NCBI GenBank assembly: GCA_038087875.1
Contig: CM075991.1
Coordinates: forward strand, 9,426,001 to 9,490,000
Direction: 5' to 3'
DNA from: Malacoraja senta
Taxonomy: Eukaryota
DNA: 64,000 nucleotides
This document shows, piece after piece, positions 5,060 through 60,519 of the stretch. A model generated the notes under the pieces. It made no database searches, was not told the origin of the DNA, and saw only the letters and a program-made list of their open reading frames with translations. Each line of letters begins with the position of its first letter. Positions within the stretch are counted from its first letter, which is position 1. The translations under genes and the position numbers were made by a program.

Positions 5060-5650
5060 ATTTAGTTTAGAGATGCAGCGTGGAAACAGGCCCTTCAGCC
5101 CACCGAGTCTGCGCCAACCAGCGATCACTATCCTACACACACAAGGGACAATTTACAATTTTACCAAGCCAATCAGCCTACAACCCTGTACGCCTTTGCA
5201 GTGTGGGAGAAAACCGGAGCGCCCGGAGAAAACCCCACGCAGGTCACGGGGAGAACATACAAACTCTGCACAGACATAGTAAGGATCGAACCCAGGTCTC
5301 TGGCGCTGTAATAGCCCTGTCCCACGGTACGAGTTCATTCCAAGAGCTCTCCCGAGTTTTTAAAAAATCACGGAGAATGAACGTAGCGGGTACGTCGGAG
5401 CTCGGGGACGTCTCTTAGCGGCTCGTAACGCTAACGGCAGGTACTCGGGAAGACTCGCTAACGGCAGGTAAGCACGGGAAGACTCGAAAAGATTTTTCAA
5501 CATGTTGAAAAATGTCCACGAGAGCCGCGAGTACCGACGAGCGGCCATTACCGTAAATCTCCGAGTTCGAATCAGGGCAAACACGGGAGAGCTCTTGGAA
5601 TGAACTAGTACAGTGGGACAGGGCTTTAAGGCAGCAACTCTAAGGCTGCG
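5060..5650 (-). mobile_element. HE1-like SINE interrupted by a MITE
   Basis: SINE sequence is continuous across the insertion (GGCGCTGTAA | GGCAGCAACTC). Confidence 0.85.
5312..5626. mobile_element. PIF/Harbinger-type MITE (family 1)
   Basis: ~40-bp TIRs starting AGCCCTGTCCCAC, TAA TSD at 5309-5311 and 5627-5629, internal CTAACGGCAGGTA subrepeats. Confidence 0.85.
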
Positions 5651-7337: not shown

Positions 7338-8494
7338 CTTATCTGTATTCCAGGGATTCACTTTTAACATTGATAAAAAATACATCTCTTGATGCTCCTG
7401 AACACATCATCAGTGATGTAACCTGGGATCATTGGGTGTTTCGGGTCTTTCAATATCAGACACCCTCACCCATGCGACCCAGCCGTGGTTGATCAGACCA
7501 CGACTGGATTCACTTTTAACAAAGGAGTACCAAAAAAAAAAATCCTTTCTAAGCATTTAGACGTTTTACAAAATGTAACAGGTTGAAATCTACAGATCTT
7601 GTGATTTATTTGAAGATAGACACAAAATGCGGGAGTATCTCAGCGGGACAGGCAGCATTGCTGGCTGGTCCACCTGGTGTTACTCTGGAGATCCAAGGAA
7701 CTACAGATGTTGGAATCCTGAGTAAAACTCAAAGTGCTGGAGGAACTCAGCTGGTGAGATGTTATCTGTGGAGGGAATAGATAGGTGGCATATCAGGTCA
7801 GGATCCCTATCCGATCCTGCCCGTCCCACTGAGTTACTCCAGCATTTAGTGTCTATCTTCTGTTTCAACCAGCATCTGCAGTTCCTTCTGACACACTTGT
7901 GATTTATTTGAATGTTTCCGGTGTAGTTTGACCTCAGTCGGTGGACATTAGATGTCATTGAGTCCCTCTGTGTCGGTGTTATTGTACGCTCAGACTATTG
8001 ACATGAGAAATGATGTACTTTGATTTTGGACTTCTGCCAACCTCAACTAGTCTGGCCCACGTGACTACCAACCCAGCAATTCTCTTTCTGAACTGCCACC
8101 TCAGTGCATGGGCATTTAGAAATAGGTGACATCCTATGAATGAGGTGGTTTTTTAAAACTAGGATATACACATTCCCTACACAAAGCACTATCTTGCACT
8201 TGATGAACTAAACATGTTAATGGATGAGATACAACTCGGGGATATTAGTGATGAATGTGCTACAATGGTTTATGACATTGCACCATTATTTTAACATTCA
8301 TTACAAGGAAGCGGAGTGGAGTGCCGTATGCCCACAGTGAGATGTGTGTTACTCATTTTCTGCAACATTATTTTAACTCTTAAGTGACTCGCAGGCAATT
8401 CTGTGAAAGTCAAAAGGTTTGTAAGGCTGTGTTCATGTTTCCACGTAGATATATATCTCAGCACAAGTCCTAGTATGAGGTGCTGATAAGTCCT

Positions 8495-8631
8495 TCTTCT
8501 TATTTCGTGTGGCGTGCACAGCCTAAAGTTGTAGGACAACTTGTTCTATTTGATCTTCCGTTTGTGCACGTCGAGTTGATTGCATTAGTCGAAACAGGGC
8601 GGGCCACGTGAAGGTTGCAATCTTCCTCCCC
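8495..8631 (-). mobile_element. Short retroposon family A (137 nt) starting with an HDV-like ribozyme
   Basis: 12-bp TSD CTGATAAGTCCT at 8483-8494 and 8632-8643, AAG-type 3' tail, second copy at 59704-59838. Confidence 0.85.
8578..8631 (-). ncRNA. HDV-like (CPEB3-type) ribozyme, minimal P4
   Basis: GGGGAGG-AA-GAUUGCA-ACC-UUCACGU-GGC-CCGCCCU-GU-UUCGA-CUAA-UGCAAUC: P1 with G1-U wobble, perfect 7-bp P2, P3/L3, J4/2 with catalytic-position C. Confidence 0.8.
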
Positions 8632-9217
8632 CTGATAAGTCCTGAATTGACCGAATTAAGTCCTATCGAACATTTCCCAGCCGAGGGATAAGGTCTCATT
8701 GAGATTCCAAAATTATTTAGGTGTTTCTACTTAAATGTTTAAATGCTTAAATATTTTCTAAAAAAAATTTAAAAATCGTTTAAAAAACTTTTTAGTTCAT
8801 TTTTAGTAGTTTTTAACTGTTTCAGAGATTCCCCCAGATGAGAAATCTGCTCTCAGGGACTAAATTAGGTCTGGCACAAGACTCGAAACTTCACCCATAC
8901 TTTTTCTCCGTAGATGCTGCCTGACCTGCTGAGTTACTCCAGCACTTTGCATCTTTTTTTTTGATAAACCAACATCTGCAGTTCCTAGTGTCTACGGAAT
9001 GGCTTTATTGTCTGTCAAAGACTCCCAGAAGGATAGATGTGTGACCTGTTCTGGATGCTCACACATCGGTTAGGTCCATGCTGCACTGCTCAGAGCCTCA
9101 TCACTTAGTCCGAAAACTTTCGGGGCCTTTAGCGTCAACCTTTAGTTTGGGAAATGATTGGGGGGATGTTTTGGGGGAGCGGGCTTTGTGGTTCTAGGTA
9201 GCTGGCCATATCGTTTG

Positions 9218-9411
9218 TCTTCTTACTTGTCCATCTTCCATGTTTCAAATGTTGACATCGCTGTCATCGTCCGTCCTGAAAAGGACGCAAGCTTCCGGCG
9301 ACAATCAGTGGGAGCCATCACTTGTCACAATAGATGATGGTGGTAGCAGAATTAGCTCAGGATACTTCCAGTTTCCCAGCCCCGCGACGTGGACGCTTCT
9401 GCTATGGGGCC
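9218..9411 (-). mobile_element. Short retroposon family B (~190 nt) starting with an HDV-like ribozyme
   Basis: Highly similar to 20537-20724; similarity ends at ribozyme +1; 3' end AAGTAAGAAGA. Confidence 0.75.
9345..9411 (-). ncRNA. HDV-like ribozyme closely resembling the CPEB3 ribozyme
   Basis: GGCCCC-AU-AGCAGAA-GCG-UCCACGU-CGC-GGGGCU-GG-GAAACUGGAAGUAUCCUGAG-CUAA-UUCUGCU: P1, P2 and P3 fully paired, P1.1 CC/GG available. Confidence 0.85.
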
Positions 9412-10223
9412 GCTGTATGGCTGAAAAATCAGGACCAAGAATCCTTTCCTTGATGAAAACAGGGGTGCTTCCACTCGCCCTTAAATCTTCTCTGGAATGC
9501 GATGAGGCAATGGATGGTTTGCATTTTCATTCCACTGGCTGACGGAGTGGGTGCAGGAGGTCGGACGAGGACACGCAACTGAGAGAATGAAGAGGGACCC
9601 AGTGTGGGAGGGGGGGGGGGGGCGAGCACAGAGGAACCCCTCATTGGGTGGGGGGGGGGAGCAAAAGAACCCGGAGTGGAGGGGGGGGGGGGGCAGCGAA
9701 AGAACAAAGAGTGACCCTTGGTGATGACATTGAACAGTTTGTAACTTTGTCGACTCCCTGCGCCTGGCTGTAAAAGTACTTCCTGTCTTTAACCTTGGAT
9801 GTCCTCATTCTAACAGCTCTGGGTGTGGAATCTCTCCAGGAATTACATCACTCCTCAATCATACATATATTCAAGATGGATACCGCAGGTAGAGACACAT
9901 TATTTATCTGGAATCACCAAACTAATGAGGATAAAAGCACAAAATGATCAAGGCAAGAGGTGACAAGGCTGTCAGTCTTAAAGAGAGGATTGGGATTGAT
10001 TACAGGCCAACTACAATTAGCGTACCGCTTGAAAGGCACTAAGTTTAAATCTGGCTCAATTAGTATTACTCGTGTCTATGAGTCAGAGTGCTGTTGGTTC
10101 AAGTCCCACTTCAGAGAGCTGCACACCAAATCTGTGATGGCACTTTGTTCAATGCTTTGTCTTTTGGATATGAAACTCTGTTAGGGGGTTCTAAAGGTCT
10201 ACAGCAGGTCTTCTGAAGAGTTA

Positions 10224-18495: not shown

Positions 18496-20536
18496 GTGCC
18501 ATCATTGAGTCACACAGCATAGAAACAGACTTTTCTGCCCAACTTCTCCATGCCAATCAAGATAGCCTATCTACGCTAGTCCCAACAGCCTGCATTTGGC
18601 CCATATGCAACCTGTCCCATCCTTGTACCTGTCCAAATGCCTTTGAAATGTGGTACTGTTGCTTTGCATCTGCGAACAAAATCCAGGCCAAGCAGTCGTC
18701 TCCCAAAAGGAAAAGGAAAGTGACAGAAAAATAAGTACCTCGATGAGAGAGGCGTGAAGGGGAAAAAAATCTGAAGGACAAAATGGCTTTTGAAACTATG
18801 CAATTACACCAAGTAATTCAATGCCGTATGAAGGAGCGTGGTAGAAAAGCCAGCCTTTGATTAACCTGTGCAAATGGAAAACAGTTGCATGTAATGACAT
18901 GAGGAAAATCCTTTTAAATATAATTGACCAAGTTGACAGGTATGGTCCAATGCAGAAAGTTGATTTTTTGCAACTAATTCTAAACAGTACTTGGCATAGG
19001 AGCGATGTGTTTCCCATGATAAACACTGTGGTCTCAAACATCTGTACTGCTAATTAACACGTTGCCCCAGTAACAGCATTACACCGTTGGACACACACCA
19101 ATCCAGCAACACGCCACACGTGTATAATATTCTTAATGACAGAACTTATTTTGTTTTTGATTTTCTTGCAAATATTCGCTACAGATTAGTTACATGAGTG
19201 GAGCTATTTTCTCCCTAAAGCACTCTTCAGCTTCCAACCTCATCATTTAGTTACCTTCAATTTGTTTCTTGATTATAGTGTGAGCTTTAGAATTGACTTT
19301 AGAGATACAGCGAGGAAACAGGCCCTTCGGCCCAACGTGTCCGTGCCAACCACCGATCACCCAGTACACTAGCACCAGCCAACACACTAGGGACAATGCA
19401 CAATTTTACAAAAGCCAAATAGTTCTATCCTGCAATGGACATCGTTAAGAACGTGTTCTCTGGTTAATTATCTCATCACCATTTTCCTTGCATCCCCATA
19501 CTTTGATTGTATCTCATTGCCTGTGAATATATTGGGATGCCCAAAGGGCCAATGTGGAGTAGTCCAATATTTTATTAATTTTAACCAAATTGATTTTCAA
19601 TCGGCAATAGATAATAAGTACAGGAGTAGCTATTCGGCCCTTCGAGCCAGCACTGCCATTCAATGTGATCATGATTTTCATGTTAATAAGTTCATGTCAT
19701 AGGAGCGGAATTAGGCCATTTGGCCCATGGAGTCTACTCCGCCATTCATCATGGCTGATCTATCTTTCCCTCTCAACCCCAATCTCCTGCCTTCTCCCCG
19801 TAACCCTTGACACCCTTACCAATCAAGTATCTTTCAATCTCCAATAAATCACCAGTTAATCGCCAATAAATCTCCAACTATTGGCGTTACGTCACAGTTG
19901 AGTTTTGCTCATCACTCTCTCCCCTGTTTATAGAAACATAGAAAATAGGTGCAGGAGTAGGCCATTCGGCCATTCGAGCCAGCACCACCATTCAATATGA
20001 TCATGGCTGATCATCCAAAATCAATACCCCGTTCCTGCTTTTTCCCCATATCCCTTGATTCCTTTAGCCCCAAGAGCTAAACCTAACTCTCCCTCTCTCT
20101 ATTGAGGTATTCTACGGACATAATACCATTTATGATTTGGTGGAGGGGTGGTGGTGGTTGGGGTACCTTCTCCACTGTGTTCTCTGCATAGCTGATGTAA
20201 AGAAACTTCGTAAATATCCACTTCTTCAGCTGCCTAGTGTTGCATGACATTCTATCCATCCTACGCTCCTCAGAACCATGAGTCTATAGATCTGTCCACC
20301 TCCTCATATTTCTTTACAACACAGAAGGAGGCCATTTGACCATCAAGTCCGTGCCAGCTCGGAGAGCATATGATTACTCCTCTGTCATTTTTTTGTTTCT
20401 GTATATCTGTTCTCTCTACATTTCCATCAATTCCACCATCCGGCAACATTAGCAGATATTTACAGTGGCCAGTTGTTCCACCATCCTGTTTCCAGAACAT
20501 GGGAGGAAACCAGAGCAGCCGGAGGAAACACACTCA

Positions 20537-20724
20537 TTCTTTTCGTGTCCATTTTGTTACAAATGTTGACCTCGCTGTCATCGTCCGTCCTGAAAAGGAC
20601 GCAAGCTTCCGGCGACAATCAGTGGAAGCCATCACTTGTCGCAGTAGATGGTGGTGGCAGCAGAATTAGCTCAGGATACTTCCAGTTTCCAGTCCCGTGA
20701 CGTGGACGCTTCTGCTATGGGCCC
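20537..20724 (-). mobile_element. Short retroposon family B, second copy, inserted in an old SINE
   Basis: Short TSD ACTCA at 20532-20536 and 20725-20729; host SINE resumes after the insertion; 3' end CACGAAAAGAA. Confidence 0.75.
20659..20724 (-). ncRNA. HDV-like ribozyme, decayed copy
   Basis: GGGCCC-AU-AGCAGAA-GCG-UCCACGU-CAC-GGGACU-GG-...-CUAA-UUCUGCU, with one mismatch each in P1 and P3. Confidence 0.7.
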
Positions 20725-36610: not shown

Positions 36611-38238
36611 ACATTTAGATGGGGCAGAACGGTGAGAGAATGCTGGCGTGAAGCGGTGGCATTGAGATGGATCAGTAGGAGAGGACGAAAATCAAAATGG
36701 CTACAGATTCTGGAAATCTAAAACAAAAACCAATAATGCTGGAAACACTCGGCAGGTCCATGGGACAATAAACAGAGTCAATGTTTCAGGTCAGAAACCC
36801 GTTCTCACCCAGCCCTCAGCTAACAATGACCTGTTTCCTTCATCATCGTTACTTATTTGCATATCTTCCATTCATTTGTTCTATATCTCTCTCTACATCA
36901 CCGTCTCTCACTTCCCTTTCCCCCGACTCTCAGTCTGAAGGAGGGCCTCGGCCCGAAACGTCATCCATTCCTCCTCTCCAGAGATGCTTCTCTGACCCAA
37001 AGTGCTGGAGTAACTCAGCGGGACAGGCAGCATCTCTGGAGAGAAGGAATGGGTGACGTTTCGGGATGAGACCCTTCCCTCCAGAGATGCTGCCTGTCCC
37101 GCTGAGTTACTCCAGCATTTTGTGTCTACCTTCGATTTAAACCAGCATCTGCAGTTCTTTCTTATACATACTGTCTGACTCACTGAGTTACTCCAGCTTT
37201 TTGTGTCAACCTTTAGTAAGAAGTCTTTTTGGAGAAGGACCTGATACTCTGCACTACATTAGATACAGTTCCATGCAATTAAAATTGTACAAATAAGTCC
37301 ATTATAAATTGATCAAATTCTGAGAGTATGAATGTCATTCAGGCACAGAATGCAAAGGGTACCTACGCTACAGCAATGAGAAACGCATACACTGTGGCAA
37401 TAAAAGCCTCTTTACTCTAATTCAATGACACCTTTGAACAGAACCTGAGGGGCAACCATTTTACACAAAAGATGGCAGGTGTATGGAACGAGCTGCCGGA
37501 GGAGGTAGCTGAGGCAGGTACCATCATAACGTTTAAAAAGCATTTGCACAGGTTTGTGTATAGAGGATAGGTTTAGAGGGATATGCGGCAAATGCAGGCA
37601 GGTGAGACTAGCATGTTGGTCGGCATGGGCAAGTTGGGCCGACTGGCCTGTTTCCACACTGTATCACCTCCAACGTTCGGAACACAGTCTTAAGTTGTAA
37701 ACAAACAAGGACTGACAAATTCATGCTTCGATAACCATAAAGGATTGTAAACCAAATTTTATGGCGTAATCCCAATTTACAAGCACAAGAAATTCTTGTC
37801 ATTTAAATCGATCTAAGTCTCAAAGTACATCAAATATAATACACTTACTTCTACACTCATAAAGAAACCAATTAACTTAATAACATTGGCTGGATATTCA
37901 TCCCTGTCAGAAGTGCTAAATATGCTACACCATAACAGTTGTCTCCAGAATTCATTCCATTGTACTGTAGATGAGATTTCTATGACAGGATACAATGCGC
38001 TGACTCAATAACAGCGGGCAAAATCAAAAATGCGACAGATGCTTAAAATCCAAAGCAAAACAGAACATAGAAAAAAAGAACTGCAGATGCTGGTTTATAC
38101 CAAAGATAGTCACAAAGCGGTGGAGTAAATCAGCAGGTCAGGTAGTTATCTACGGAGAAAAATGATGGGTGCCATTTTGGGATCGGGACCCTTCTTCTGA
38201 CCACCAAAGTGCTGGAGTAACTCAGTGGCTACCAAAGA

Positions 38239-40897: not shown

Positions 40898-41206
40898 AAC
40901 TAACTTCAATATATAACTTGAACAAGTAATTCTCAGATCAGCATCAGCTTTAGTTTCATTGTGGTGGTGATGAAAATGATTGAAGAGGGTCAGTCCAAAA
41001 CCAATTAACCTGCAAACCTGTACGTCTTTGGAGTGTGGGAGGAAACCGGAGCACCCGGGGAAAACCCACGCGGGTCACGGGGAGAACGTACAGACAGCAC
41101 CCATAGTCAGGATCAAACCCGGGTCCCTGGTGCTTGTAAGGCAGCAACTCTACCGCTGCGCCACCATGCCCATGAATATTATAAGCCGAATGATCGGTTC
41201 TTGCGC

Positions 41207-41760
41207 TGTTCCCATGTTCCCATGTCCCATGTTGCCATGTTGCATGTTCCATGTTCCATGTTCCCATGTTCCCATGTTCCATGTTCCCATGTTCCCATGT
41301 CCTCATGTCCCATGTCCCATGTTTCCATGTTCTCAGTTTCCATGTTTCCATGATCCCATGTTCCCATGTTCCCATCCCATGTTCCATGTTTCCATGTTCC
41401 CATGTTCCCATGTCCCATGTTTCCATGTCCCATGTTCCCATGTCCCATGTTTCCATGTTCCCATGTCCCATGTCCCATGTCCCATGTTTCCATGTTCCAT
41501 GTTCCCATGTTCCCATGTTCCATGTTCCATGTTCCATGTTCCCATGTTCCCATGTTCCCATGTCCCATGTTTCCATGTTCCCATGTCCCATGTTCCCATG
41601 TTCTCATGTCCCATGTTCCATGTTCCATGTTCCATGTTTCCATGTTTCCATGTCCCATGTTTCCATGTTTCCATGTTCCCATGTCCCATGTTTCCATGTT
41701 CCCATGTTCCCATGTCCCATGTTTCCATGTTTCCATGTTCCCATATTTCCATGTTCCATT
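41207..41760 (+). repeat. Mixed 7/8-bp tandem repeat (CCATGTT / CCCATGT / CCATGTTT)
   Basis: ~550 bp of CATG-anchored units; explains the spurious repetitive ORFs in all frames. Confidence 0.95.
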
Positions 41761-59703: not shown

Positions 59704-59757
59704 GGGGTGTGAGATTGCAACCTTCACGTGGGCCGCCCTGTTTCGACGAATGCAATC
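59704..59757 (+). ncRNA. HDV-like (CPEB3-type) ribozyme, minimal P4
   Basis: GGGGUGU-GA-GAUUGCA-ACC-UUCACGU-GGG-CCGCCCU-GU-UUCGA-CGAA-UGCAAUC. Confidence 0.78.
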
Positions 59758-59838
59758 AACCCGGCGTGCACAATCAAGTAAGATCAAATAGAACAGGTTG
59801 TCCTACAACTTTAGGCTGTGCACGCCATACGCAAGAAG
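59704..59838 (+). mobile_element. Short retroposon family A, second copy
   Basis: Aligns end to end with 8495-8631(-); degenerate TSD ACAGATGGCTA / ACAGATTACTA. Confidence 0.8.
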
Positions 59839-60519
59839 ACAGATTACTAGATTTACTGAATTCAATTTCGCAATCAGCCATAGCTAGAGTTCATTTTAGG
59901 ACGTCTGCCATCTGCACTTTGAAGACTCTTTCAAGGTCATTTTTGGGGGCATTTTTGTGGTGGGGAAAGTGAGGCCCCTAGTTAATGATTGTGGGCTTGC
60001 CTGGTGTGGTTGAACTCATTGTGGAATGGAAGACATTGCTGTCGAGCAATTTAACAGACGTGATTGTCACTAAAAGCTGGAGTAACTCAGTGGGTCAGGC
60101 AGCATCTCTGGAGAAAAGGAACAGGTGACCTTTCTTCAGACGTCTCAAGCCGAAATGTCACCCATTCCTTCTTTCCAGAAATGCTGCCTGACCCGCTGAG
60201 TTACTCCAACTTTTTGTGTCTATCTTCGCTTTAAACCAGTTCCTGCCTACACTTAACAGACATGATTTTCTGCAACTCATTGACTGCGAGGTACCTTGGA
60301 TTGACCTGGGCTTGCTGTTATCATCACAATGTGAGCTGTGGGCTACCGAGTGATCCATCAAAGATGCAGTACACCTTCAAACAGAGACAATGGCCTTCTC
60401 CAGTTATTATAAGGAATCATTAGGCTGAACAAATGTAGTTTGCTTTATTGTTACTTGTACCGAGGGCACATGCTAACCAGTCAGCAGAAAGACAATACAT
60501 GATTACATGATTACAAGCA

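Follow-up and report, generated by a model that had tools for sequence, protein, structure and literature searches.

A 137-nt SIDE of a Vingi-type LINE with a predicted HDV-like self-cleaving head in Malacoraja senta

Bipartite non-autonomous LINEs are known from RTE, Ingi, Vingi, and R2, and the reason for this bias is left open in the accessible text of PMC5786205, which also places 5' ribozymes in six clades, Vingi not being among them there. The Vingi clade is represented by the derivatives of Vingi-1_EE (Kojima, 2011, as cited in PMC5786205), in which, as in the family described here, internal deletion has joined the 5' and 3' ends of a LINE that has a single APE/RT ORF and lacks RNase H, and which are likewise dispersed and devoid of a small-RNA head; the present family may already have a Repbase name. 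PMC13708176 places Ingi as the sister of Vingi; the trypanosome elements NARTc and RIME, which belong to the L1Tc/ingi clade with its L1TcRz ribozyme, are also short, internally deleted, and dispersed, with an HDV-like ribozyme at nt 1. They differ in having a 77-nt head with P4, shown promoter activity, and a parent with RNase H (PMC4035085), whereas the element described here has a predicted 54-nt fold with almost no P4, an animal host, and thousands of copies.

The category of SIDE was defined in PMC3414825, where the R2 SIDEs of Drosophila provide the example. These resemble the present element, whose ribozyme is predicted, in combining a ribozyme with a LINE 3' end and in having no connection with pol III, and are called SIDEs and not SINEs; cleavage has been shown for them, and the ribozymes of both R2 SIDEs and L1Tc/NARTc cleave in vitro (PMC3414825; PMC4035085). 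In contrast, R2 SIDEs are specific to rDNA sites, derive from an RLE-type parent, measure 529 bp in the case of R2Dwi_SIDE, and occur in few copies (PMC3414825). Minimal HDV-like and theta ribozymes resemble the 54-nt head in lacking P4 while keeping the core intact; they are carried by phage genomes and their origin is called open, whereas the 54-nt head is carried by an animal retrotransposon (10.1101/2023.06.13.544163).

No ribozyme on a Vingi-type LINE was found in the literature examined, as far as its texts were accessible, a set that includes PMC6765202, PMC5753468, and PMC10919898. An earlier description of Vingi ribozymes is quite possible. A patent text is said to place an HDV-type fold in the 5' UTR of Vingi-1_Acar. 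The kind of element is already known, so the finding is not a new class; the short element is new by its P4-less 54-nt head, its small size, and its high copy number in an animal. Putatively new, judging from sequence, are ribozymes on Vingi-type LINEs, a P4-less fold in an animal, 5'-tip inversions (8/8), and sister heads that score on the CPEB3 model.

The window copy and its family

The window, that is, the whole 64,000-nt stretch of DNA that was analysed, located at C15:9426001-9490000, carries a copy of the short element at 8495-8631 on the minus strand, with its first base, G1, at 8631. The copy is enclosed by a perfect 12-bp direct repeat, CTGATAAGTCCT, at 8632-8643 on the 5' side, where the last base lies one before G1, and at 8483-8494 on the 3' side; the 137 nt between the repeats and the perfect target-site duplication (TSD) adjoining them were correctly recognised in the earlier note. 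Repeated 12-mers are by themselves not rare in this repeat-rich window; this pair brackets a family member exactly. In the element, nt 1 to about 79 of a LINE are followed by a filler of 13 nt and then by the final 45 nt of that LINE. On the minus strand of the window copy these parts are the 54-nt HDV-like fold (8578-8631), the remaining part of the LINE 5' UTR (nt 55-79; 8553-8577) with an arm, CGTGCACA, at 8563-8570, the filler at the deletion joint (8540-8552), and the final 45 nt (8495-8539), which comprise the last codons of the LINE ORF with their stop at 8523-8525 and a short 3' UTR with an arm, TGTGCACG, at 8513-8520. The copy ends in a terminal ACACG motif and an AAG-type tail. The filler is found in neither LINE end; it is a partial repeat of the preceding letters and is predicted to form a small hairpin with the LINE-derived part. 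A pseudoknot-blind fold of the 137-nt element was no better than those of shuffles (z -0.17). A second copy, belonging to the main (older) subfamily and 89% identical, lies at 59704-59839 on the plus strand within a decayed 11-bp duplication. Elsewhere, the window contains a minisatellite of 7-8-nt units (41174-41760) and long perfect hairpins (2148-2282 and 37005-37115) that are head-to-head copies of an abundant repeat and give spurious microRNA matches.

In the 1.94 Gb genome, a 21-mer of the head has 5,225 exact matches, which sets the number of copies of the short element at 5,225 or more, and a 23-mer of the 3' part has 2,990; the reversed pattern of each has none. The copies are dispersed and inserted in both orientations. 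For the behaviour of the 5' ends, the first 71 among the listed matches to the 3' part were taken, so that there was no selection on the 5' end; three were left out, namely two with duplicated flanks and L091, which is split by a CR1-type LINE, and the remaining 68 all lie on contig C1. The gathering of 5' ends at G1 that had been predicted is borne out: 64 of the 68 copies reach nt 1-4, and 65 reach nt 1-10. A TSD of 7-15 bp is present in 61 of the 68 (mode 12 bp, 18 copies; 11 bp in 14), and in 58 of these 61 it ends within nt -1 to +3 of G1. The base that follows the TSD is nt 1 in 32 copies, nt 2-3 in 18, often because the duplication itself ends in G, nt -1 or 0 in eight, and another in the remaining three.

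The commonest letters of the family are GGGGUGG/CCGCCCU for P1 and ACC/GGU for P3, as the earlier note had foreseen in its consensus with Y at position 5. U5 is found in 60 and U29 in 63 of the 64 copies that cover the position, whereas the letters of the window copy, A5 and C29, occur in 0/64 and 1/64. More than 90% of poly(A) RNA reads from a related organism also have U at both positions, and the window copy thus carries two private helix breaks. All pairs and core bases are intact in 26 of the 68 genomic copies.

The window copy belongs to a younger subfamily, for which diagnostic letters give 847 exact matches and whose median pairwise identity over nt 1-62 is 96.0%, against 92.6% for the main subfamily. 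This subfamily, the youngest, postdates any copy of the partner LINE that was found, and its tail, ACACGAAAGAAG, is closer to that of L190, a younger LINE family with copies 96-98% alike, than to the tail of the parent LINE, ATACGCAAGAAG; from this likeness, its driver LINE may have changed.

The parent LINE and the predicted 5' fold

The parent is a decayed LINE of about 3.1 kb in the same genome, with a single ORF encoding APE and RT, and it was found with a pattern that required a Trp codon ahead of the shared 3' part. Its 3' ends read ...AWMSTLDLQL-stop, followed by the last bases of the short element. Other routes did not lead to it: the pattern TGG..ATCAAATAG gave 82 matches, and each of the 18 examined was the short element itself, either truncated or altered by point mutation; a search by RT motif gave 344 matches from which the parent was absent, its motif being different; and a further pattern had no match in the genome. 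L091 (G000:C1:20848500-20854000), where 5' and 3' motifs stand 3.3 kb apart on C1, was considered as a parent and rejected: a CR1-type LINE of 3.3 kb has inserted into a short copy there, giving a 5-bp duplication, and an open frame of 784 aa is left.

Short elements share 92-97% identity with LINE copy L318 over their first 72-75 nt and 91-96% with LINE copy L277 over their final 45 nt; the window copy (92% over its first 72 nt, 91% at the 3' end) and the LINE-like copy L092 (97% and 96%) mark the two extremes. The same head occurs with ORF remnants on L273, L309, and L310, and the same tail on L273 and L310; in L310, which has head, ORF remains, and tail, an 11-bp TSD ends four bases ahead of the run of G. 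The element is therefore two LINE ends joined, that is, a SIDE or bipartite non-autonomous LINE, and not a classical SINE; what stands of the earlier view of a SINE-like retroposon is a retroposon family with TSDs. Such internal deletion arose more than once in this LINE. In L325/L304, nt 1-143 of the same LINE are joined directly to nt 2859 to the end, with a TSD present, and L085 is a short copy with a later joint.

The parent ORF contains an endonuclease domain (PF14529) and a reverse transcriptase domain (PF00078), and no RNase H family was detected at E<=0.1 in any of the nine proteins or protein pieces examined. Its best homolog, P0121, is an unbroken single ORF of 1,019 aa, 72% identical, of which aa 22-1012 align to L309; this is a possible lead to horizontal transfer. 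Every LINE copy examined is broken, and the 5' ends are 93.2% alike (median pairwise identity, 11 copies); set against the 92.6% of the main subfamily, this makes the LINE as old as that subfamily. In an RT tree the parent groups with proteins of about 1,000 aa from fish, lancelet, sea urchin, and insects and with a multi-copy RT family of Anolis carolinensis, away from CR1. By definition, a Vingi element encodes APE and RT in one ORF and lacks RNase H (PMC13708176), and the parent is a Vingi-type LINE by this published definition and not by comparison with a reference, because the tree contained no sequence named Vingi, Ingi, or RTE. Among 11 PDB matches there was no solved Vingi structure. 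At least ten Vingi-like families, reached through variants of the RT motif (L159-L208), are present in the genome, which suggests repeated invasions; in most of them the 3' UTR is as short as 13-30 nt and the tail is of the AAG type.

The 54-nt head, found also on LINE copies L310 and L318, was parsed with a fold descriptor based on the HDV-like consensus. In the window copy, P1 is formed by GGGGAGG/CCGCCCU (8625-8631 with 8596-8602), P2 by GAUUGCA/UGCAAUC (8616-8622 with 8578-8584), and P3 by ACC/GGC (8613-8615 with 8603-8605), all on the minus strand; L3 is UUCACGU (8606-8612), G37 lies at 8595, the six nucleotides UUUCGA occupy the place of P4, and J4/2 is CUAA, with C44 (8588) as the putative catalytic base. 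The perfect P2 (7/7), L3, J4/2, and nearly absent P4 of the earlier note all stand, and what was implied there and left unstated is that pairing in this copy amounts to 6/7 in P1 (A5 vs G) and 2/3 in P3 (A17 vs C29), the private mismatches being at 8627 and 8603. On account of these two mismatches, the window copy is probably a poor or dead ribozyme. Its parse scores 34.7, compared with a maximum of 27.4 among 40 shuffles, and an Rfam search of the 54-nt head gave no match at E<=1.

The family and LINE heads have all pairs of a nested P1/P2/P3, the G1.U wobble, U..C..G in L3, the G after P1, and C-N-A in J4/2, and the head of L318 has 17/17 pairs. Neither the LINE nor any subfamily has lost the putative catalytic C, G1.U, L3, or J4/2, and the changes that run through whole subfamilies preserve the fold (U5-A to U5.G; CUAA and CGAA in J4/2). 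P1.1 amounts at best to one G-C pair, and the six residual bases of P4 could form a UUCG loop closed by one pair.

Other Vingi-like LINEs have related heads. L190, another family of this genome, has a full-length copy with a TSD whose first base is G1 of a fold of 73 nt, and the same kind of start is found in five distinct relatives from metagenomes (L326, L334, L337, L346, and L371). Across seven LINE heads with the same fold, both sides have changed in 12 of the 17 pairs; covariation was counted on helix parses because MAFFT misaligns the heads. The count of 118 paired cells out of 119 is partly circular, since pairing guided the parsing itself, and it is the 12 pairs changed on both sides that carry information. 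The paired count of the seven heads was reached by none of 2,000 shuffles, and the result was the same when three similar heads were merged to one. With the strict descriptor, none of 79 ORF-internal windows matched, and 23 metagenome LINE loci, many of them without a 5' end, gave four matches, three of them distinct; L326 and L346 matched only under the relaxed descriptor, which parsed L362 and L328 doubtfully and L347 and L348 not at all. A metagenome search with the head itself gave no match. In L327 (420-570), a Vingi-like head has a long insertion in the ribozyme core between the strands of P3, which the descriptor fails to parse. The related heads measure 67-74 nt, and P4 was lost only in the lineage with the 54-nt head. 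This head is a family-wide predicted self-cleaving fold inherited from the LINE; of the idea of a near-minimal ribozyme, the size of 54 nt and the near absence of P4 remain, and the fold is no invention of the short element.

Transcription, predicted cleavage, and insertion

The element is probably a SIDE that derives from a Vingi-type LINE; its head of 54 bases has a predicted self-cleavage site at G1, and cleavage there would likely free the RNA from host transcripts, ready to be copied by the LINE protein. Its history begins with the deletion seen in the sequences, which joins two LINE ends; the product, with its AAG tail, has spread to thousands of sites, where it is flanked by duplications of 7-15 bp. 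HDV-type cleavage during transcription would then set the 5' end, as suggested by the fold, the covariation, and the 5' junction, and no pol III head would be needed. The APE/RT protein of the LINE would recognise the last ~45 nt and prime reverse transcription at a nick; the shared 3' end, the tail, and the matching age all point to such borrowing, as had been supposed, with a Vingi-type partner in place of the R2 or RTE elements first considered. Both the cleavage-made 5' end and the use of a LINE protein in trans would follow the precedent of R2 SIDEs and L1Tc.

Transcripts were sought in one raw poly(A) run (X24) of a related organism, in which about 6% of the run supplied 819 reads. These showed no pile-up of read starts at G1 and no place with many molecule starts. 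Upstream of the position corresponding to 8631, 201 of the 819 reads continue into varied flanks, from which it follows that the short element is transcribed inside host RNAs. First mates are about twice as common on the minus strand; the strandedness of the library is unrecorded, and in a library of the usual stranded type this would mean an approximately twofold excess of antisense over sense.

A rather unlikely but serious alternative is that the 5' region combines the ribozyme with an internal pol II promoter, like Pr77 of L1Tc, in which case the element would not be promoter-less and cleavage would only trim or back up its own transcripts. In Ingi, sister to Vingi, the first 77 nt serve as both ribozyme and promoter (PMC8256844; PMC4035085), and dispersed insertion in both orientations gives the short element no fixed host promoter; however, reads over G1 mostly run into varied flanks, and the visible RNA of the element is host-driven. 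It is improbable that the fold survives only as a relic or as a structural cap, with the 5' end set by the start of transcription or by protein binding and a P4-less head too slow to be useful. The reduction of P4 to 6 nt, the failure of Rfam to detect the head, the single possible pair of P1.1, and the lack of a pile-up of read starts are in keeping with this; against it stand the retention of the catalytic C, G1.U, L3, and J4/2 in the LINE and all subfamilies, the poor showing of 5'-OH ends in fragmented poly(A) libraries, and the activity of P4-less phage ribozymes (10.1101/2023.06.13.544163). A conventional pol III SINE with a tRNA, 5S, or 7SL head and a tail merely shared with a LINE, which the size, copy number, and tail might suggest, is already refuted, because the head is the 5' end of the LINE itself. 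Against it, too, exact A and B boxes are absent, in agreement with the earlier note, one-mismatch matches to them stand in the wrong order, and no tRNA or other Rfam RNA was found in the element.

To return to the SIDE with a self-cleaving head, evidence on how its 5' end behaves at insertion comes from the LINE itself. Among 46 distinct LINE 3' ends, eight have an inverted upstream piece, and in 8/8 this piece derives from nt 8-349, while the direct part begins at nt 1,072-2,974, with gaps of 723-2,898 nt; inner pieces would have shown, because the whole LINE served as query. The TSD surrounds the entire inverted structure in four of the eight. Inversions of the 5' tip were recorded in L217, L235, L240, L241, L251, L257, L271, and L274, and further ones in L284, L298/L322, L302/L323, L305, L316, L317, and L318; L315, in the set picked by 5' ends, has a single ordinary inversion with adjoining pieces. 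In L1 twin priming, both pieces usually adjoin. The mechanism of twin priming is described in PMC2912911. The capture of a second, short 5' RNA would give the same inverted structure as that found here.

The two ends of the element can also pair, over 8 bp in the LINE and the window copy and 10 bp in the main subfamily, and, with unrelated letters, over 9 bp in L190 and 10 bp in L337. By energy, this end helix was better than all control windows in two of eight elements (L337 and L348), the parent LINE not being one of them, and with so mixed a test an end-to-end helix is not established as a clade-wide rule. Together, inversions and end pairing point, more weakly than the evidence for the other steps, to a 5' end held near the target. 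The protein might thus keep the 5' end close, perhaps aided by the 8-10-bp helix, which would account for both the near-universal full length and the 5'-tip inversions.

Sister heads, the CPEB3 ribozyme, and significance

Two sister heads score on the Rfam model of the CPEB3 ribozyme (RF00622; cut-off 35): positions 692-775 of L190 (G000:C1:86602000-86606200) with 59.7 bits and positions 3106-3189 of L371 with 55.6 bits, the latter agreeing with the consensus in nearly every letter between the start of P1 and the last base of P1'. L190 and L371 group together in the RT tree (96/93). The 54-nt head has L3 UUCACGU, the GU after P1, and C-G/U-A-A in J4/2 in common with CPEB3, but differs in the letters of P2 and P3, has no P4, and falls below detection at E<=1. 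In mammals, the CPEB3 ribozyme occurs as one copy only, conserved within an intron. The accessible text of PMC7761336 suggests domestication in general terms only, no source of the ribozyme is named in the literature searched, as far as accessible, and the text seen of PMC8233481 has no mention of origin or of transpos- terms. The sequence likeness suggests that the CPEB3 ribozyme may have arisen by domestication of a Vingi-type head.

A second short ribozyme-headed family, of about 185 nt, is present in the window at 9230-9412 and at about 20535-20722, both on the minus strand; its CPEB3-like heads score 35.2 and 26.4 bits, with a 6-bp P1, TSDs, and the ACACG+AAG end that also marks the 137-nt element. 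A first look gave 2,041 candidates, and its parent LINE was not found among the loci examined.

The discovery of a natural minimal template, with about 125 LINE-derived bases, bears on a LINE clade that has been used with both UTRs for gene insertion in human cells (PMC13708176). It places on an animal retrotransposon a P4-less HDV-like fold hitherto seen in phages and metagenomes, and the 5'-tip inversions are relevant to the question why bipartite elements are confined to RTE, Ingi, Vingi, and R2 (PMC5786205). These inversions and the near identity in core between Vingi-type heads and the CPEB3 ribozyme are testable leads. A broader proposal, offered tentatively and with the balance somewhat against it, is that HDV-like ribozymes occur throughout the clade of Vingi-type LINEs, that these LINEs keep the cleaved 5' end beside the 3' end at insertion, and that the CPEB3 ribozyme is a domesticated head of this type. 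If so, one closed-loop mechanism would explain the full-length mini-elements, the 5'-tip inversions, and the need for both UTRs, and the short family, with its 54-nt P4-less ribozyme and 137-nt unit, would be the smallest animal version of it.
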